64,000 nucleotides of DNA from Gammaproteobacteria bacterium (GTDB lineage Bacteria > Pseudomonadota > Gammaproteobacteria > UBA4575). The notes under the pieces were generated by a model. That model was not told where the DNA came from and did no database searches. It saw only the letters and a list, made by a program, of their open reading frames with translations. Location of the stretch: the NCBI GenBank assembly GCA_965243395.1, contig CBDEUS010000001.1, forward strand, positions 64,001 through 128,000. Direction: 5' to 3'. Below are positions 24,215 through 56,397 of the stretch, one piece after another (the first letter of the stretch is position 1; every line of letters begins with the position of its first letter). A program made the translations under genes and the position numbers.

Positions 24215-24244
24215 AATGACTGCTTTTGACTGAAAGCGGATAAC
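24215..24244 (+). repeat. 30-bp palindromic repeat, degenerate copy
   Basis: AATGACTGCTTT-TGACTG-AAAGCGGATAAC aligns without gaps to the 52-54 kb copies. Confidence 0.75.
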
Positions 24245-27470: not shown

Positions 27471-27500
27471 AATCACTGCTATTGGCCGTAAAAAGACATA
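27471..27500 (+). repeat. 30-bp palindromic repeat, degenerate copy
   Basis: AATCACTGCTAT-TGGCCG-TAAAAAGACATA, 21 nt after the VOC stop; shares CTGCTATTGGCCG with the 53750 copy. Confidence 0.72.
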
Positions 27501-48181: not shown

Positions 48182-48427
48182 GTAACTTTTGTTCCTAAAA
48201 AAGGGCCTGCCTTCTATCGTATAAAAATAAGCTAGTCAGTATTAACCGAATACTCGCTTATCAAGCCACTCTATTTTATCTGACATTTGCGATTTCGTAT
48301 CTTGATCGCATGTACTTATTAAGCATTTCAAAATTCGGATAACTTTTTGCTTGGGGTTGCGTTAAACTAAAATCATTATTACTTGTCTGTATCTATTTGG
48401 GGGCTTTTTGAAACTGAATATTCGATT

Positions 48428-51400
48428 ATGGGCATTATAAATTTTTCAATTAAGAATCCGTTAGTCGTAAATCTTTTCCTAGTTCTCATTATTGTCTTAG
48501 GGGTAATTTCTTGGCGCAGTATGCCGCAGGAAATGTTCCCGGTAGTAGATATTGATCAGGTTCGTATTAATACTGAATTCGAGGGTGCGCCACCGGAAGA
48601 AGTTGAATCCCAAATTACTATTCCGATTGAAGAAGAGTTAGATGGCCTTGCTGATATTGATGTGATTACCTCCGAAAGCAATGAAGGCATTTCCAAAATT
48701 ATTATCAAGCTAAAGCCAGACGCAGATGTGGATGAATTTGTGCGTGATTTGAGATCTACGGTGGACGCAATTACTGATTTGCCCGATGAATCTGAAAGAT
48801 CTGATATCACGCGTTTGAAAACGCGTTTCCCTGTTATCAGTATGAGTGTTTACGGGGACGCTTCAATGGGCACATTAGTAGAAGCGGCTAAAGATATTAA
48901 AAGCCGTTTACAACAAATTGATGGTGTAGCCAGTGTAAGTATTGCTGGAGAACGTGAATGGGAACTTTGGATCGAAGTAGATCCATTTGCAATGTCCGCA
49001 CGTAAGGTTTCTTTATCTGTCGTGATATCCGCATTACAAAATAATCTTCGTGATCTTCCTGGTGGGTCGTTGAAAGCATCTGAGGGAGATATTTTATTGC
49101 GTGGCAAGGGTGCCGCACCAAATATAGAGGCGACTAAAAGAATTGTATTGCGTAGTGATAATAATGGCGGGCAATTAGTCTTAGATGAAGTAGCCGATGT
49201 ACAGCTCAGATTGGAAGAAACAAAAACATTAGGGCGGTTTAATAATAAACCATCAGTAAATTTAACCGTTACCAAAACAGCAAAAGCATCTACTATTGAA
49301 GTTTCAAACTTAGTAAGAGAACTTGCGTCAGAGTTACAAGAAGAGCTACCTAAAAATATACAGGTTGGATTATTTAGTGATTTATCGATTTATGTCAAAA
49401 CCCGTTTAGAAACTTTGAAGTCTTCTGGAGCAGTAGGTTTGTTCCTAGTTCTCTTGTCACTTTATTTATTCTTAAATTTTAGAGTGGCAGCCATTACAGC
49501 GTTAGGCATCCCAGTCTCTTTCTTAGTTGCTGTAATCATCATTAATTATCTTGGTTACACCATAAATATGGTTTCCATGTTTGCGTTTTTAATCGCGCTG
49601 GGAATGATTGTTGATGATGCCATTATTGTTACGGAAAATACGTATCGCCATATGGAAGAGGGCATGCAACCCATTCCAGCTGCGAAAGCGGGAGCGGGAG
49701 AAGTATTTTGGCCCGTAATGGCCTCAACCTGTACAACCATCGCAGCTTTTCTACCGATGTTTGGTGTATCAGGCACCTTGGGTTTATTCATTCAGGTAAT
49801 CCCCGTTGTAGTGACTGCTGCGTTGTTGGGTTCTCTTCTTGAAGCGTTTATCGTTTTACCATCTCATTCTGCTGAATTGTTGCGTGTTGCGAAACACAAA
49901 AAACGCAACAGAATAAATTGGCAAAAATGGCTTGATAAATATGTAACAGTGGTGAAATACGCGTTACAAAATCGATATTTTGTATCTGCTGTTACGGTAG
50001 GAGTGTTAAGCGTTGTTCTAGTATATTCAAAAATTCATATGCCATATAACCAATTTGGTGATGTAGAAATTGGTCAGTTTCTTGTCAATATTGAAGCACC
50101 TAATACTTACAGTACTGAAGATACTACTCAACTTGCCATTCAAATCGAAGATAAAATGAATGCAGTATTTCAAGAAAATGAATTAGATACTCTATTAACA
50201 AATGTTGGTGTGATCTTAATTGATTTTAATCGCCTGAAGTTGGGAAGTAATTACATTCAGTTTGTAGTCGATCTGAAAAAACCAAAACCGAAAGGATTTA
50301 TAGAGCGTTTTGTAAGTCCAATAGTGAATTTAAAATTTTCATCCACTGGGGTGCGTGAACGAAGTACAGAAGTTATTTTAGATGAAGTACGAGAAAGTGT
50401 TGCGACCATTCCAGGGATACAGCGCTTTTCTATATTGCGTCCTCAAGGTGGACCAGCAGGATCCGATATTGAAGTTGGTATAGTTGGCAAAGAAACTGAA
50501 AAACTTTTAGCTTTATCTGGTGAAGTTGTGACATTTTTGCGACGAGTTCCAGGCGTAAAAGATGTAAGACAAGACTTAGAGCCAGGAAAACTTGAATATC
50601 AGTACACAGTCAATTCACGTGGTCGTGAGTTAGGTTTAACTCAAGCTCAGATTGCTGACGCTGTGCGCACAGGCTATTTAGGCTTAGAAGTAATGCAAGT
50701 GAATTGGGAAGCTGATCGCTATCCTGTAAGAGTGATATATCCAGATACTATTCGTGAAGATGGTGCAGGATTAAAACGTTTGCCCATTACATTGGAGGAT
50801 GGTGGAACCGTTTATCTAGGCGAAGTTGCAGATATTGAGTTGGGCAGAGGCTTGGGTGTTGTACAAAGAAGAAATTCACAACGATTATCATTGATAACGG
50901 CAGAAGTAGATAAAGAAGCCATTACACCTTTAGAAGTAACGGAACTGCTAGCAGAAGAATTTAAGACTTTAAGCGATGATCATTATGGGTACTCATTGTT
51001 ATTTTTAGGCGAAAAGAAAGAAGCACAAGATTCCTTTAATGATATTGGAAATATGCTGATTGTTGCGCTGGCTATAATCTTTTTTATTCTAGCCGCATTG
51101 TTTAAATCATTGTTGGATCCATTTGTAATTATGTTTGCCATTCCGTTTGCTATCGTTGGAGTAATTGTTGGGCATATGTTATTTGGATATAACCTACAGT
51201 TTTTGTCTATGATTGGTTTCCTAGCCCTTACAGGGATAGTGGTGAACGATTCATTAATATTTATCGATTTCGCTAAAAAGCGAATTGCTGCAGGCGCAAG
51301 TTGTTTTGATGCTTTAGTAGATGCAGGACGCGTACGCATTCGGCCTATTCTTTTAACCACTGTAACTACGTTCTTAGGCATATCGCCTTTAATCTTTTTT

Positions 51401-51571
51401 GCCAGTGGTCAAACTGCTTTCTTGTCGCCCATGGCTGTGAGTTTAGGGTTTGGTCTTATATTCGCAACCATATTGATATTAATAGTACTACCGTGCTTTT
51501 ACATGATTGCAGATGACTTAAGAAATTATACTTATGCAAGGTTTAACAAAATGAAAACTATTCATGCATGA
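48428..51571 (+). CDS. RND efflux transporter (AcrB/AcrD/AcrF family)
   Basis: GAPPEEVE, GMIVDDAIIVTEN, GIVVNDS, RIRPILLTTVTT. Start reassigned to ATG 48428. Confidence 0.96.
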   Translation: MGIINFSIKNPLVVNLFLVLIIVLGVISWRSMPQEMFPVVDIDQVRINTEFEGAPPEEVESQITIPIEEELDGLADIDVITSESNEGISKIIIKLKPDADVDEFVRDLRSTVDAITDLPDESERSDITRLKTRFPVISMSVYGDASMGTLVEAAKDIKSRLQQIDGVASVSIAGEREWELWIEVDPFAMSARKVSLSVVISALQNNLRDLPGGSLKASEGDILLRGKGAAPNIEATKRIVLRSDNNGGQLVLDEVADVQLRLEETKTLGRFNNKPSVNLTVTKTAKASTIEVSNLVRELASELQEELPKNIQVGLFSDLSIYVKTRLETLKSSGAVGLFLVLLSLYLFLNFRVAAITALGIPVSFLVAVIIINYLGYTINMVSMFAFLIALGMIVDDAIIVTENTYRHMEEGMQPIPAAKAGAGEVFWPVMASTCTTIAAFLPMFGVSGTLGLFIQVIPVVVTAALLGSLLEAFIVLPSHSAELLRVAKHKKRNRINWQKWLDKYVTVVKYALQNRYFVSAVTVGVLSVVLVYSKIHMPYNQFGDVEIGQFLVNIEAPNTYSTEDTTQLAIQIEDKMNAVFQENELDTLLTNVGVILIDFNRLKLGSNYIQFVVDLKKPKPKGFIERFVSPIVNLKFSSTGVRERSTEVILDEVRESVATIPGIQRFSILRPQGGPAGSDIEVGIVGKETEKLLALSGEVVTFLRRVPGVKDVRQDLEPGKLEYQYTVNSRGRELGLTQAQIADAVRTGYLGLEVMQVNWEADRYPVRVIYPDTIREDGAGLKRLPITLEDGGTVYLGEVADIELGRGLGVVQRRNSQRLSLITAEVDKEAITPLEVTELLAEEFKTLSDDHYGYSLLFLGEKKEAQDSFNDIGNMLIVALAIIFFILAALFKSLLDPFVIMFAIPFAIVGVIVGHMLFGYNLQFLSMIGFLALTGIVVNDSLIFIDFAKKRIAAGASCFDALVDAGRVRIRPILLTTVTTFLGISPLIFFASGQTAFLSPMAVSLGFGLIFATILILIVLPCFYMIADDLRNYTYARFNKMKTIHA

Positions 51572-51685
51572 ATGTTGTGTGATCGAGAGTAATTTGTATC
51601 TATATAAATTTGTTGCAGTACATTCTTATCTATTTATCTTATAAATTAATACCTCTATTTAAGCTTCACTTATTTTTAATAAATT

Positions 51686-51988
51686 TTGCTTCCATCAAAA
51701 AAAGAAATTTTAGAATCTAACCCTCCATTCCTAATGGAACATCCAGCAGGTGACTGGTCTTTAATAAAAAAAATATCAAAAGTTAATGAGGGTCTTAATT
51801 TCACTGTTTTATACATGAATGAAAATACATTCTTGCAACGCGATATCTTAATTGATGTACCACCATTTTATGTCGGTGCTGATGTGTGGGAACTCGATCA
51901 TGGAACGGTATTGATGACATTGGAGCATCCAACCCTTAGTGAACATCCTGCAAAAACTATGTGGGAAAAGTGGAAGCATAGTCGTTAG
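51686..51988 (+). CDS. Hypothetical protein
   Basis: 100-aa ORF with TTG start and no recognised motif. Confidence 0.55.
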   Translation: MLPSKKEILESNPPFLMEHPAGDWSLIKKISKVNEGLNFTVLYMNENTFLQRDILIDVPPFYVGADVWELDHGTVLMTLEHPTLSEHPAKTMWEKWKHSR

Positions 51989-52039
51989 CAGTTAATCGCA
52001 TTAATCAAAAAATTTATAAATAAAAATCTGGAACTAAGT

Positions 52040-52645
52040 ATGAAAACCATTGAAGCTATATATAAACGTCGTGCAGTAAAGCATTTTGATAAAGATCATA
52101 AACTGACAAAAGAAGAGGAAACTCAGTTGTTTGAAGCTACTATCCAGGCACCTACTAGTTTTAATATTCAGCACTGGCGTTTTGTAATACTTCGCGATTC
52201 GCAATTACGTGATCGTATTCGCACTGAGTTTGGTAATGATCAATCACAAATGACGGATGCCTCGTTGCTTGTGTTATTTACTGCGGATGTGAACGCATGG
52301 AAAAAGAGTCCTGAACGCTATTGGAAGAATGCGCCCAAGGAAGTTGCAGAATTATTAGTTAACTGGATGGGACCTTTTCACGAAGGCAAGGACTGGTTGC
52401 AGCGAGATGAGGCACAACGCTCGATAGGTATGGCGATGCAAACCCTCATGCTTGCAGCACAAGAACTGGGTTATCAATCTTGTCCGATGATTGGGTTTGA
52501 CCATGAAAAGGTCGCGGAATTAATCAACTTACCTAAAGATTATGTAATAGGTCCGATGGTAGCGATTGGTAAAGGAATTAAAGAACCATGGCCGAAACCA
52601 GGACAGATTCCTTTAGACGAGCTTGTTGTAGAAAATTCATTTTAA
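52040..52645 (+). CDS. Nitroreductase family protein
   Basis: IYKRRAVKHF, APTSFNIQHWRF, LMLAAQELGYQSCPMIGFD. Confidence 0.93.
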   Translation: MKTIEAIYKRRAVKHFDKDHKLTKEEETQLFEATIQAPTSFNIQHWRFVILRDSQLRDRIRTEFGNDQSQMTDASLLVLFTADVNAWKKSPERYWKNAPKEVAELLVNWMGPFHEGKDWLQRDEAQRSIGMAMQTLMLAAQELGYQSCPMIGFDHEKVAELINLPKDYVIGPMVAIGKGIKEPWPKPGQIPLDELVVENSF

Positions 52646-52652
52646 AACATTG

Positions 52653-52682
52653 AATATCTACTATCGACCCATTGCGGATATT
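52653..52682 (+). repeat. 30-bp palindromic repeat, copy A1
   Basis: AATATCTACTAT-CGACCC-ATTGCGGATATT, 7 nt after the nitroreductase stop. Confidence 0.85.
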
Positions 52683-52704
52683 AAGAAATGTAGGAATTTA
52701 TATA

Positions 52705-53100
52705 ATGGAACAAATTAAAAAAATTAATCATGTGGGTATACGGGTAAGAGATTTGGAAAAATCCCGTGCCTTTTATGAACAGCTTGGGTTTAAGTTCATT
52801 ATCGGTCCAATTGGCCCTGAACCAGTGGCCATTATGGAACATCCGTCTGGAGTTAATATAAATTTTATAATCAATGCTTCTGAAAATGCATCAGAGAAAA
52901 ATATTCTTATGGATGTGTCTGAACGACACACTGGTTACACACACATGGCATTGGAAATCACCGATCGAAATTCTGTATTACAACAGTTGAGTGATTTAAA
53001 TATCCCGATTACAGAGACAGTGGAATTAGAAGATGGAACAGTCTTTTTCTTTATTCGTGACCCGGATGGAAATGTGATTGAGTTTCATGATCCTGCTTAA
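52705..53100 (+). CDS. VOC/glyoxalase family protein
   Basis: INHVGIRVRDLEKSRAFY, THMALE, FIRDPDGNVIEF. Start reassigned to ATG 52705 (AGGA RBS). Confidence 0.93.
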   Translation: MEQIKKINHVGIRVRDLEKSRAFYEQLGFKFIIGPIGPEPVAIMEHPSGVNINFIINASENASEKNILMDVSERHTGYTHMALEITDRNSVLQQLSDLNIPITETVELEDGTVFFFIRDPDGNVIEFHDPA

Positions 53101-53130
53101 TTATGATCCTTTCGACCCAAAGCGGACATT
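53101..53130 (+). repeat. 30-bp palindromic repeat, copy A2
   Basis: TTATGATCCTTT-CGACCC-AAAGCGGACATT directly after the VOC stop. Confidence 0.88.
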
Positions 53131-53136
53131 GAAAGC

Positions 53137-53313
53137 ATGAATAACTTTATACATTTTCCGTCTTTCATCATTGCAATTTTAGTTGCTAGCGGAATTGCAT
53201 TTGCTGTTAGTTATTTTACCGGTCTTTCATTTGTAATTTGCCTACTTATCGTAATAGCGGCCATTTTCCTAAATGGAATCATTATTGCTTTTACAGAAGG
53301 CAAGAATAACTAA
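53137..53313 (+). CDS. Small two-TM membrane protein (58 aa; not in the ORF track)
   Basis: MNNFIHFPSFIIAILVASGIAFAVSYFTGLSFVICLLIVIAAIFLNGIIIAFTEGKNN; fills the interval between two repeats almost exactly. Confidence 0.75.
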   Translation: MNNFIHFPSFIIAILVASGIAFAVSYFTGLSFVICLLIVIAAIFLNGIIIAFTEGKNN

Positions 53314-53315
53314 CT

Positions 53316-53345
53316 AATGTCCGGTATCGACCCAAAGCGGACATT
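53316..53345 (+). repeat. 30-bp palindromic repeat, copy A3
   Basis: AATGTCCGGTAT-CGACCC-AAAGCGGACATT. Confidence 0.92.
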
Positions 53346-53364
53346 TGAATAAGTTACTTTCGTT

Positions 53365-53730
53365 ATGGAAAAATTAGAAATTGGTGATCGCATTAAACTA
53401 TCAGGTGGTTATGATAATAACCCGCTTTGGTTGAAAGGCGGCAGTGGGTATAACGCAAAAGTGACAGGATTTTTTGACAATGAAACAGAGGGACGTAGAG
53501 ATGATTCACGTATTTCCGCATCAATAGAGTTTGATAAAGAAATTGAATATGAAGGAATTAAGGGGAAATATGGATTTATTTTGGGACGATGGGAAGGCCA
53601 AAAATGGGAAAAAAGTGGAACTGTTCATTGTCATATATGTAGTGTTCCTATTTCTAAAGCAAGTGATATAACAAAAGAAAATACTGTATGGGCAGAATCA
53701 CATGCACATTATGAATGCATTTACAGTTGA
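53365..53730 (+). CDS. Hypothetical protein (cassette-like)
   Basis: 121-aa ORF bounded by repeats A3 and A4. Confidence 0.75.
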   Translation: MEKLEIGDRIKLSGGYDNNPLWLKGGSGYNAKVTGFFDNETEGRRDDSRISASIEFDKEIEYEGIKGKYGFILGRWEGQKWEKSGTVHCHICSVPISKASDITKENTVWAESHAHYECIYS

Positions 53731-53749
53731 ATTAATTATTAAAAATTAA

Positions 53750-53779
53750 TACGTCTGCTATTGGCCGAATGCGGATATT
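53750..53779 (+). repeat. 30-bp palindromic repeat, copy A4
   Basis: TACGTCTGCTAT-TGGCCG-AATGCGGATATT. Confidence 0.88.
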
Positions 53780-53800
53780 TTTGAATCAGGATTTATACAT

Positions 53801-54301
53801 ATAAATACAAAAATAAAAACACCGCTAATTTATATCATCCTTATAATATATATAACGGGATGTCCTGCTGCGCATTTACAATCTAGAAATATTCAATCTC
53901 TTAAAGTTGGATTTGATGTTGATCAAAAACGAGAAAAATTACTAGAAAATAATGATGCAGTTGATGAGTTTGCAAAAATCATCAGTGATGTTATGGAATC
54001 TGAGAAATTCAAATTATCTCTGAGTAATACCTCATATGGTTTAATACCGCATACAGGTCATACTCAGAATCTAATTTTTACACTTACGAATAATTCTCAT
54101 GTTAGATGTGTGATCATGATTTCAAAAACATATTTTTCTGCGAATTTTACTGAATTAGAATCCGCTCCTGAAACTAATATGTTTAAAACAAATGAAGATG
54201 ATATTGCAATGATTGAAAATGCTGTTATTAAACTAAAGGAGTCTGTTGAAAAGACGTATCCAGAGCGATCGGTTAAAATATCCAATTTTTATAATAATTA
54301 A
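53801..54301 (+). CDS. Hypothetical lipoprotein with ATA (non-canonical or mutated) start
   Basis: The frame of ORF 53993-54301 is open back to ATA 53801, which has an AGGA RBS; N-terminus (I)NTKIKTPLIYIILIIYITGC is a lipoprotein-like signal. Confidence 0.6.
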   Translation: MNTKIKTPLIYIILIIYITGCPAAHLQSRNIQSLKVGFDVDQKREKLLENNDAVDEFAKIISDVMESEKFKLSLSNTSYGLIPHTGHTQNLIFTLTNNSHVRCVIMISKTYFSANFTELESAPETNMFKTNEDDIAMIENAVIKLKESVEKTYPERSVKISNFYNN

Positions 54302-54330
54302 ATGACCGCTATTGGCCAAAAGCGGTCATT
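54301..54330 (+). repeat. 30-bp palindromic repeat, copy A5
   Basis: AATGACCGCTAT-TGGCCA-AAAGCGGTCATT with perfect 10-bp arms; overlaps the last base of the stop codon. Confidence 0.92.
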
Positions 54331-54384: not shown

Positions 54385-56397
54385 TTAAAGTAAAGGCGCA
54401 ATTACCAAACTTACAATTGCCATTACGTTAATTAAAATATTCATCGAAGGACCTGAGGTATCTTTGAAAGGATCACCAACAGTGTCGCCCACCACTACAG
54501 CTTTATGTGTATCAGAACCTTTGCCACCGAGGTTTCCTTTTTCAACATATTTTTTGGCATTGTCCCAAGCGCCGCCGGCGTTGGCCATCATAAGTGCAAG
54601 CAGGACACATCCAAGCAGTGCGCCTCCCAACATGCCGCCCAAAGTTTCTGCGCCAAATCCAAAACCGACCACTACTGGGGCGATGACCGCTAGCAAACCT
54701 GGTGGGACCATGCGTTTTAAAGCAGCAGTGGTTGCGATATCCACACAACGCACAGTGTCAGGTTTTGCAGTGCCTTCTAGCAAGCCGGGGATTTCTTTAA
54801 ATTGACGTCGAATTTCTTTAATCATATCGAATGCCGCATCACCCACTGCTGTCATCGTCATCGAAGCAACAAGAAATGGAAAGATGCCACCAATAAATAA
54901 ACCAATCAGTACCATTGGATTACTTAAATCTAAAACAATAGAGCCGCTACCGTGAGTACTTACTTCCGCCAGGAAAGCTGTGATGATGGCAAGTGCTGCA
55001 AGAGCCGCTGCACCAATGGCAAACCCTTTTCCAATTGCAGCTGTAGTATTGCCGACTTCATCTAACTCATCTGTGATTTTGCGGACGTCTTCACCAAGCT
55101 CGGCCATTTCTGCAATACCACCCGCATTGTCTGCAACCGGACCATAGGCATCAATTGCCATAGTGATGCCAACGGTTGCAAGCATTCCGACTGCTGCAAT
55201 ACCTACGCCATAGAGATCTGCAAATTGATTCGCAAAGAAAATAATTGCGGCTATGCTCGCTATAGGAACAACCACTGACTGCATGCCAGTAGCTAAGCCT
55301 GAAATCATTACGGTTGCCGGCCCTGTTTCACCACCTGCAGCAATTTTTCTAATTGGGCTTCCACCTGTGTAGTACTCGGTAACCAAGCCAATAATGATTC
55401 CACCTACTGCGCCAGATAGTACCGCTACCCAAACACCAGTGCTTATGCCGAGTTGTGTGATTACAAAATATGCTGCAATGATAAATATTATCGCAGCAGA
55501 AAAAGTTCCAATGCGTAATGCTGTGGCAGGTGATTTACCTGAAACAATTTTTACCAGAATGATTCCAATGATAGAACAAACGATTCCGGTAGAAGCTAAA
55601 CCTAAAGGTAAAAACATTAACGTTGATTTTTCGCCTAAGCGCTCAAGGATCGCAGGTCCTAGAGTTGCGGCAATGGCTATGGTTGCAATGATGGAACCAC
55701 AGTAAGATTCGAATATATCAGAACCCATGCCAGCAACATCACCCACGTTATCCCCAACGTTATCCGCGATGACTCCAGGATTACGAGGGTCATCTTCGGG
55801 AATTCCGGCTTCAACTTTTCCAACAAGATCGGCACCCACGTCCGCACTTTTAGTGTAAATGCCGCCACCCACACGTGAGAACAGTGCAACGGTAGACGCG
55901 CCCATTCCAAACCCATGAATAACGTTTGCCGTTGCTGGGTCACGTCCGAACATGAGATACAAAGTCCCTAAACCCAGTAAGCCCATGGCAGCTACGGTCA
56001 AACCCATAATGGAGCCACCAAAGAATGCGACATTTAAAGCCGCATCTGCACCATGTTCTTTTGCGGCAGAGGTAGTGCGCACATTTGCGCGTGTAGCGGT
56101 ATACATTCCGATGTAACCCGCGGCAGATGAAGAAATTGCACCAATTATGAATGCGATTGCGGTGTTCGCACCCAGATCTGAAATCCATATTGCCGCCACA
56201 ACAAAGGCAGCAAAGATATACATGATAGTGTATTCACGACGCATAAAAGTCATGGCACCTGTATGAATTTCTTCAGCAATTTCAAGTACTTTGCCGGTTC
56301 CGGCCGAGTACCTTAAAACAACGCGGTAGATAATGAATGCTGAAATCAGGCCTACTATCCCCAGGATGACGGGTAGTTGATGCATGGATAAGGTCAT
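54385..56397 (-). CDS. hppA: Membrane-bound ion-translocating pyrophosphatase, K+-dependent type
   Basis: [53 protein letters not shown]. Confidence 0.96.

Follow-up and report, generated by a model that had tools for sequence, protein, structure and literature searches.

A 30-bp unit made of two inverted arms around a 6-bp asymmetric centre recurs in dispersed arrays of small genes across the genome of a gammaproteobacterium (assembly GCA_965243395.1, here G000; 2.58 Mb, two contigs, 100% complete). In the window analysed here (the whole 64,000-nt stretch C1:64001-128000), five small plus-strand open reading frames (ORFs) lie between a flank formed by an AcrB-type transporter gene and a 100-aa ORF and a convergent H+-pyrophosphatase gene, and one such unit is found 0-20 nt after each of the five, abutting or overlapping the stop codons. 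Our tentative reading, which we place a little short of an even chance, is that the units are duplex sites of the lox/FRT/dif type within an integron-like cassette system, whose recombinase would act in trans and would usually be absent from the genome that carries the sites.

According to this mechanism, each inverted arm would be bound by one subunit of a sequence-specific protein, while the asymmetric centre would give the site its polarity and define its class (A or B, with C as well in other taxa). A gene together with its site would form a cassette; cassettes would form co-oriented stacks at numerous hot spots of the chromosome and pass from one array or genome to another, presumably by conservative site-specific recombination next to the centre. 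The enzyme, acting in trans and missing from G000, would leave behind arrays equal to integrase-less attC clusters.

Arms, centres and composite units

The arms follow the consensus ATGTCCGCT and extend over 10-12 bp on either side of the centre. The copies that a first-pass annotation had reported in the window are present (52653, 53101, 53316, 53750 and 54301 on the plus strand, with a weaker one at 27471), and another weak copy lies at 24215 (Table 1). A consensus search at up to 3 mismatches matched the copies at 53316 and 54301 on both strands, and gave 0 matches in 100 shuffles. With up to 6 substitutions, 90 copies were found in G000, where the centre TGGCCG occurs 27 times and CGACCC 26 times. 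An anchored search, which required positions 10-21 with at most 1 mismatch and at least 10 of 18 outer-arm matches, found 124 copies in G000, 180 in the 330 kb of sequence taken from a relative (G019), and at least 225 in cross-taxon loci; the latter comprise at least 152 stretches from a scan of one-genome-per-species contigs, a set ascertained on a good right arm.

The 12-6-12 layout first described for the window is borne out in all three sets. Exact spacing was found for the strict-arm pairs of G000 (23 of 29), of G019 (75 of 89) and of the cross-taxon loci (120 of 201), and strict-arm pairs of other spacing are mostly arms of neighbouring sites. The two proposed centre classes also hold and are kept across bacterial classes: class A is CGACCC-like (YGACCC) and class B is TGGCCG-like (TGGCMS). 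A variable core length had been named as evidence that would speak against the scheme; in classes A and B, the centre is fixed at 6. The suggested likeness to tyrosine-recombinase sites stands as well, since the arms are inverted and flank an asymmetric centre of constant length (6 bp). Class C, the third, is marked by a centre of 7 nt (CGGGGGT-like) and accounts for 40 of the 201 cross-taxon pairs. Because the Pseudolabrys-type genomes use TGACCC as their class A centre and TGGCCC as their class B centre, position 15 (A or G) is the class-defining base.

Moreover, the arms carry class-linked variants. T at position 7 is commoner in class A left arms (31 of 63 versus 12 of 56 in G000; 50 of 147 versus 4 of 72 in the cross-taxon set), and A at position 24 is commoner in class B right arms (30 of 56 versus 15 of 63 in G000; 28 of 64 versus 10 of 102 in G019); therefore, the right arm of class A is the better one in all three sets. 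The left arm of class B is the better one in G000 and G019, and its arms are about equal in the cross-taxon set.

The first-pass annotation had favoured recognition of the site as a hairpin, on the grounds that the arms covary. The three arm pairs it pointed to in the window are real; in larger sets, they turn out to be a minority state and there is no general covariation. In particular, across the 124 G000 sites, pair 5:26 is AA in 44, TA in 40, AT in 14 and TT in 9, and pair 7:24 is CA in 32, CG in 31, TG in 27 and TA in 11; the corresponding counts in G019 are AA 109, TA 33, AT 12 and TT 11 for pair 5:26, and CG 103, CA 31, TG 28 and TA 10 for pair 7:24. Watson-Crick counts equal the independence expectation at all ten arm pairs (124, 180 and 225 sites), and no compensatory signal appears across 547 sites; the arms vary independently.

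A pairing count on an alignment likewise gave no significant compensatory signal. This alignment held 150 sites (75 taken at random from 166 in G019 and 75 from 219 cross-taxon sites) and was compared with 500 shuffles. Pairing was seen in 76.5% of cells versus 75.4% in shuffles (reached by 1 of 500), with 8 pairs changed on both sides versus 6.5 (102 of 500), 30 cells changed on both sides versus 25.4 (74 of 500), and a covariation score of 0.103 versus 0.092 (9 of 500). Single changes far outnumber double ones: the variable pair 5:26 is unpaired in 51 sites versus AU in 4, and pair 7:24 is unpaired in 38 and UG in 23 versus UA in 6. Because the excess of pairing is one percentage point, the set mixes two lineages that differ at the position-5 consensus, and kinship among sequences alone can beat shuffles without structure, we conclude that these figures do not reflect compensatory evolution.

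Folding calculations bear on the same question. At least eight of nine pairs are formed in 28 of 121 sites in G000, 69 of 166 in G019 and 142 of 219 in the cross-taxon set, so that most G000 sites cannot form the stem. As single-stranded DNA (ssDNA), the two best window copies (z of -3.7 and -5.5) fold better than shuffles, and four of the six fold like shuffles. It is therefore improbable, in our estimate, that the sites are read as folded single strands by an integron-type or HUH enzyme, either as one hairpin each or with a B...A pair forming an attC-like long hairpin: covariation within sites is missing, the sequence is conserved and not the structure, which is the opposite of attC, and G000 has neither an HUH Y1 enzyme nor an integron integrase.

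Some features of closely spaced pairs speak for a folded site. Among 66 site pairs lying 30-140 bp apart, 56 are BA, 5 AA, 5 BB and none AB, the BA pairs being on the same strand, and the start-to-start spacings of close pairs cluster at 45, 59, 73, 83 and 91 bp. The spacers of the 73-bp and 83-bp B-A units have the GGTTGGAA motif in common, and in the 91-bp units of Alphaproteobacteria, B and A are separated by a class C site (B-15 nt-C-15 nt-A). The outer arms of B-A pairs are well conserved and the inner arms weaker and more variable; attC sites have strong outer and weaker inner boxes. Further, the commonest variants, A24 in the B right arm and T7 in the A left arm, are mutually complementary. 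Against a B-A hairpin, the 56 composites show no covariation (442 pairs in the outer stem versus 440.8 expected, and 428 in the inner stem versus 423.6).

A long form of the site, known from about a dozen copies, consists of the left arm, CGACCG, the hairpin CCRCCATGGATGGYGG, AAGTG, a second hairpin, CGACCC and the right arm. Its 56-nt centre folds as two hairpins inside the arm stem, and the CCRCCATGGATGGYGG hairpin has a G-C to A-T change on both sides, which again favours a folded site. As RNA, the long form folds with -23 to -34 kcal/mol (L225:437-518, L230:228-310 and the C2:218638 region of G000). It may represent the unoccupied or ancestral state of the array entry point.

A variant class B right arm, AAAGGAGACA followed by AAAATG, resembles a ribosome-binding site and start codon (G000 C1:233747, C1:282981, C2:520819 and other composite B sites). 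A mini-ORF in the B-A spacer was dropped as its frame is not conserved among copies. A promoter in the spacer was also dropped; a 3.6-kb array with several composites holds one TTGGAA-17-TAAAAT match, and its promoter-like sites number 7 versus 15.4 in shuffles.

Overall, the arms are conserved in sequence yet vary independently of each other, their spacing is fixed and the centre is asymmetric and falls into classes; these properties argue for a polar site that is bound by a dimeric protein on duplex DNA, as the proposed recombination sites would be.

Arrays and their turnover between relatives

The sites are placed at gene ends in a strand-dependent manner. When ORFs of at least 50 codons ending between -45 and +9 of the site start are counted, same-strand ORF ends are found at 59 of 90 G000 sites, compared to 18 of 90 on the opposite strand and 12% at 2000 random positions; in G019, the counts are 65 of 159 and 36 of 159. 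The left arm often contains the stop codon, in the form of the TGA in AATGA. Among sites with a same-strand ORF, the stop ends at site position +5 in 11 of 59 in G000 and in 11 of 65 in G019. Sites are co-oriented within arrays, about 17 of which are dispersed in G000. Ten G000 arrays have 81 ORFs of at least 130 aa within or next to them, of which 38 lack a Pfam family and none is a recombinase; the annotated array ORFs are small detoxification and stress enzymes (GNAT, OsmC, isochorismatase, metallo-beta-lactamase-fold, patatin, nuclease, methyltransferase, HxlR, DUF899, GFA, Usp and similar). A self-comparison of the G000 arrays found no duplicated cassettes, repeated B-A units alone being recovered.

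The gene content of the window locus turns over between close relatives. Across seven genomes, G000 and six of its 14 congeners, the interval between the AcrB-type and pyrophosphatase genes differs in its genes and measures 2.4 kb in G000, 8.8 kb in G012 (about ten sites), 4.3 kb in G001, 2.3 kb in G011, 2.2 kb in G003, 2.5 kb in G006 and 10.3 kb in G007. The four distal G000 cassettes were found in none of the 14 congeners, among which the glyoxalase-fold gene (cassette gene 2) had no DNA match.

The first cassette can be followed elsewhere. The nitroreductase segment (51989-52668) has 86% identity to another contig of G012, and the gene is located at other loci in G012, G003, G011 and G014. 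The likeness to G012 begins just past the preceding stop codon and ends at about site position 16, after which the right arm is replaced by unrelated sequence. The reversed half-site at the left edge of this segment (Table 1) has a fuller reversed site as its G012 counterpart. Similarly, a 1.6-kb EAL/HDOD cassette from the G012 array at the window locus is found in a different G000 array with 92% identity, where the left arm and centre of the two copies align and the right arms differ. The glyoxalase-like gene that precedes the copy at 27471 has a class B site after it in G000 and a class A site in G012, where it lies on another contig.

At a second locus (G000 C1:28.6-31.2 kb), the intergenic spacer of six congeners lacks a site and holds an ordinary terminator of the GC-hairpin/T-run kind. 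G002 has just one long-form A site there, with the GGTTGGAA motif before it, and G000 and G012 have cassettes; in these three genomes, the inserted DNA replaces the terminator. Site edges coincide with all of the variable or relocated segments examined. No target-site duplication was found around 458 sites, where comparison of the flanks at six boundary offsets (k-mers of 2-8 nt) gave no more matches than shuffled pairings; this fits conservative recombination and not DDE transposition. A miniature inverted-repeat transposable element derived from a DDE transposon was rejected on the same grounds, G000 also having no rve-type transposase. One metagenome contig has a joint of 53134 to 53316, which we discount because one side spans just 26 nt with 85% similarity, and two sequencing runs of the same species label gave spurious 47-59-nt matches alone.

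The order of sites within arrays provides no support for the idea that centre identity decides recombination partners. This idea had been drawn from the window, where three class A sites are followed by two class B sites as if cores fell into adjacent blocks, and the run is not a general pattern. In the suggested test of neighbour sharing, same-class adjacency is 27 in G000 versus a permutation mean of 33.4 (standard deviation 4.1) and 60 in G019 versus 70.2 (standard deviation 5.7), below the mean in both. Thus, of the outcomes that the first-pass annotation had named as refuting its scheme, a lack of significant covariation and a random distribution of cores are both observed.

Table 1. Genes and site copies of the window, with positions counted from its first nucleotide.
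Feature	Position	Strand	Remarks
Left flank	48383..51988	+	AcrB-type transporter gene and 100-aa ORF, both conserved
Cassette gene 1	52040..52645	+	nitroreductase
Cassette gene 2	52705..53100	+	glyoxalase/bleomycin-resistance fold, 131 aa
Cassette gene 3	53137..53313	+	58 aa, no Pfam family
Cassette gene 4	53365..53730	+	121 aa, no Pfam family
Cassette gene 5	53993..54301	+	at least 102 aa
Right flank	54385..56397	-	H+-pyrophosphatase gene, conserved, convergent with the array
Weak isolated copy	24215..24244	+	AATGACTGCTTT TGACTG AAAGCGGATAAC; located where G012 synteny stops
Weak class B site	27471..27500	+	poor arms; after glyoxalase-like cassette gene
Reversed half-site	51981..51996	-	left arm and part of a class A centre; left edge of nitroreductase segment
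Class A site	52653..52682	+	AATATCTACTAT CGACCC ATTGCGGATATT; weak arms; 7 nt past nitroreductase stop; ssDNA fold z +0.59
Class A half-site	53101..53130	+	CGACCC AAAGCGGACATT, centre and right arm intact; fold z +0.87
Class A site, near consensus	53316..53345	+	AATGTCCGGTAT CGACCC AAAGCGGACATT; 1 mismatch; fold -7.5 kcal/mol, z -3.7
Class B site	53750..53779	+	TACGTCTGCTAT TGGCCG AATGCGGATATT; degenerate left arm; fold z -0.16
Class B site	54301..54330	+	AATGACCGCTAT TGGCCA AAAGCGGTCATT; closes the array; fold -9.9 kcal/mol, z -5.5

The copy at 53101 has no recognisable left arm, those positions being occupied by the 3' end of the glyoxalase gene, and the first base of the 54301 site is the last base of the TAA stop of the upstream ORF. 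The frame of cassette gene 5 has 183 open codons upstream of its stop, so that its true start may lie further 5'. The annotated start, at 53993, is probably placed too far 3', although a clear start codon was not found. Before its first ATG, this frame (53790-54301) encodes a hydrophobic stretch ending in ...ITGC that resembles a lipoprotein signal.

Elsewhere in G000, a tRNA gene (C1:232100-232174; 74.6 bits) adjoins an 11-site array at C1:232.7-235.4 kb. A separate module, ACTCWTATTCGCNCATCCATGNGCTCACTA, resembles a terminal inverted repeat, has a hairpin before it and is genus-specific (G000 C1:30485-30514, C1:423465, C2:997735, C2:1047019 and C2:933215). Its stem is changed on both sides among copies (GCACAT/ATGTGC, GCCCAT/ATGGGC, GCGCAT/ATGCGC and GGACAT/ATGTCC), and it occurs in 1-7 copies per genome in 14 of 14 other genus members and in none in G019. 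The module is often located 43 nt past the B site that closes an array, and one array also has an inverted copy at its left end. It was rejected as an array-end part of the site system, being present in the site-free G014 and absent from the site-rich G019.

Candidate enzymes and evidence against recombination

Several observations weigh against the reading of the units as recombination sites, beginning with the enzymes. Profile searches of G000 for Y1_Tnp, Resolvase, IS110-DEDD, the TnpB domain and rve gave no match, and its tyrosine recombinases (five PF00589 genes) are XerD, XerC and three P4-like integrases; XerD passes its cut-off with 401 bits versus 329.6 and XerC with 370 versus 335. 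Four G019 arrays each have an integrase beside them, and these four proteins are just 13-18% identical to one another. G000 lacks YR-X, a tyrosine recombinase family considered below, and searches of five distant genomes with sites did not find it. Further, one indel is bounded by sites of different class: in the neighbourhood of a GNAT cassette, G000 has one additional cassette relative to G012, which has a right arm alone directly after the GNAT stop, whereas in G000 the additional gene stands between a full A site and a degenerate B site. Half-sites are of three kinds (left arm and centre, centre and right arm, right arm alone), and at this resolution we do not claim that the crossover is placed on one phosphodiester bond. 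Crossing-over often at one edge of the centre would blur the class-linked variants in both arms. Finally, sites of Alphaproteobacteria also lie upstream of ordinary paralogous ABC substrate-binding genes. In Xanthobacteraceae-type genomes, a class A site is often found upstream of paralogous ABC_sub_bind genes (25 ORFs at 18 loci); a representative was confirmed at an E-value of 5.7e-50, with the site about 80 nt before its start codon.

G000 contains no integron integrase, as its Xer-sized genes score 131-135 bits against a cut-off of 265. Because integrase-less attC clusters (CALINs) lack an integrase by definition, a missing IntI alone does not exclude a CALIN. The P4-like integrases were rejected as the cognate enzyme; they are missing from most site-bearing relatives and none adjoins a G000 array. 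A Y2_Tnp search carries no weight, its control having matched nothing anywhere. The RAYT family (PF01797) is absent from G000 and G019, and within the genus it was found in G001 alone, though 13 of the 14 others carry sites. The Xer proteins are the sole recombinases common to all carriers examined. The sites were rejected as the host dif: G000 has a canonical dif site at C1:959290, near the GC-skew maximum, whose arms, compared by eye, agree with those of the sites at about 5 of 10 and 4 of 11 positions. When the ORFs surrounding 152 cross-taxon loci were clustered, no recurrent recombinase emerged among the matches listed.

As to the enzyme, YR-X is a lead only. This family of 378-aa tyrosine recombinases, defined from one of the four integrases beside G019 arrays, keeps R220, R316, H339 and Y349. 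In G019, two paralogues (47% identity, 5 kb apart) bracket a six-site array (L189:15460-16599 and L239:695-1831); the gene is intact in G003 and broken or fragmentary in G001, G002, G005 and G021. An inverted site is located 8 nt past the YR-X stop in G019, 28 nt in G003 and 64 nt on a metagenome contig. The family was found in 6 of the 19 relatives that carry sites and in none of the 22 that do not, and 3 of 6 metagenome loci of close YR-X relatives have sites within 3 kb.

The same proximities can be read in the other direction, with the sites as preferred insertion points for assorted integrases such as YR-X, and islands accumulating there. Some insertion sequences target REP or attC sites, and the inverted sites past the YR-X stops, the four unrelated integrases beside G019 arrays and the one G000 array that starts beside a tRNA gene are all in keeping with such targeting. 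We nevertheless regard it as highly improbable: most cassettes are single small genes without an integrase, G000 has about 17 arrays and three non-Xer integrases, none of which adjoins an array, and the presence of one site per gene is left unexplained.

Distribution and relation to known systems

The site family is widespread across taxa, rare and patchy. The class A 18-mer, at up to 1 mismatch, was found in 22 of 41 genomes including G000 and in 13 of the 14 other genus members, with up to 99 matches in G019; a reversed control pattern gave none. Among the matches listed in the scan of one-genome-per-species contigs, the carriers include Alphaproteobacteria (Pseudolabrys, Xanthobacteraceae, Maricaulaceae, Kiloniella and Sphingomonas), Gammaproteobacteria (a Coxiellaceae metagenome-assembled genome (MAG), Lysobacter, Noviluteimonas, Frateuria, Pseudomonas and Neptunicella), Betaproteobacteria and one Candidatus Udaeobacter MAG (Verrucomicrobia). 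The arm sequence is identical between the 38%-GC Gammaproteobacteria and 53-63%-GC loci of Alpha-, Beta- and Gammaproteobacteria. The rarity and patchiness follow from a sample of 400 evenly spread other genomes of the phylum, as 18 carry the exact 17-mer (4 single matches for the control pattern), and just 7, all of one family, carry at least 2.

Ten plasmids, 8 of Klebsiella and 2 of Pantoea, have one site apiece. On the Klebsiella pneumoniae plasmid NZ_CP042975.1, a class B-type site (L238:5002-5031) lies 50 nt past a GNAT acetyltransferase gene; it has the TGGCAC centre seen in Alpha- and Betaproteobacteria loci, and OsmC, CMD and DinB-family genes are nearby. This site and its GNAT gene look like a captured cassette. 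Searches of Rfam 15 at permissive E-values with the array of the window, four array loci and four loci of the long form gave no relevant match. No description of the site family was found in the open-access and bioRxiv literature searched, where arm and centre strings matched unrelated primers alone.

The main rival explanation, which we judge somewhat unlikely, is that the units are extragenic palindromes akin to repetitive extragenic palindromic (REP) elements and bacterial interspersed mosaic elements (BIMEs), bound by host factors or acting on mRNA 3' ends through exonuclease protection, insulation between genes or translational stop. The mosaic of genes would then be secondary, arising by homologous or slipped recombination between repeats and by horizontal transfer. 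Much of the anatomy is compatible with it: the units are imperfect extragenic palindromes at stop codons with about 100-250 copies per genome, their left arm supplies TGA or TAA stops, modular long forms exist, and the sub-types form composites in fixed order with discrete spacers, some with a third sub-type between. The lack of a cognate recombinase in G000 and the sites upstream of ordinary paralogous genes in Alphaproteobacteria also count in its favour. However, RAYT is absent from G000 and G019 and uncorrelated with the sites, and the same arm sequence across classes and GC contents is unusual for REPs. Action as an RNA hairpin is not supported by compensatory change, as C-A and A-A mismatches are common; terminator-like sites number 0 in the 3.6-kb array versus 1.6 expected, there is no Rfam match, and site edges are found at every variable segment examined. 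Composite partners are in direct orientation, whereas BIMEs alternate (PMC2817692). More generally, compared with REP, BIME and REPIN elements and their RAYT transposases (PMC2817692, PMC3686654 and PMC5581495), the sites are similar as extragenic palindromes by stop codons in high copy and with composites of set spacers, and they differ in having no RAYT, a direct orientation, the same sequence across classes, and a position at the edges of mobile segments.

Among the closest known systems to the proposed recombination sites are integron cassette arrays and CALINs (IntegronFinder, PMC4889954). Shared with these are co-oriented arrays of small, mostly unannotated accessory genes with an imperfect palindrome after each, hypervariability between close relatives, cassettes shared between arrays, and arrays without an integrase. 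The sites themselves are unlike attC, being 30 bp long, conserved in sequence and free of covariation, whereas attC sites span 57-141 nt and are conserved in structure; the conserved end heptamers of attC, looked for by eye, occur at neither end of the A, B or composite consensus. Unlike the single platform of an integron, the arrays are dispersed at about 17 per genome and use two or three centre classes. The site system is also abundant in Alphaproteobacteria, which are reported to lack integrons.

Among duplex sites, the units resemble loxP, FRT, dif and the dif-like modules of Acinetobacter in their inverted arms, in an asymmetric spacer of 6-8 bp and in genes bounded by sites. In the dif modules of Acinetobacter plasmids, sites stand in alternating orientation around the modules. 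The present sites differ from these in having arms unrelated to the host dif, a co-oriented and not alternating arrangement, and hundreds of copies. The res sites of Tn3-family resolvases have three dimer-binding subsites, and the B-C-A units of Alphaproteobacteria similarly pack three palindromic subsites into about 121 bp; in contrast to res, half-site spacing is near-equal in all subsites, G000 has no Resolvase and most junctions are single sites.

A broader conjecture, which we hold to be rather unlikely as it stands, is that the sites belong to a second cassette system of Proteobacteria (and of at least one Verrucomicrobia MAG), independent of integrons, in which short duplex sites with two or three exclusive classes and fixed B-(C)-A modules would direct an ordered exchange, carried out by a trans-acting recombinase usually not encoded in the carrier genome.

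The analysis replaces a vague 'integron-like' label with a testable anatomy, consisting of duplex recognition, a class-defining position 15, a strong and a weak arm, B-then-A order and a list of excluded enzymes. If the units are REP-like, they would be an unusual extragenic palindrome that is kept across classes without RAYT, and would need a conserved binding factor. If they are recombination sites, they would constitute a gene-capture platform that is invisible to attC-based search tools, spans several classes and reaches clinical Klebsiella plasmids as single sites. If a second cassette system does exist, it would supply cassette capture to Alphaproteobacteria.

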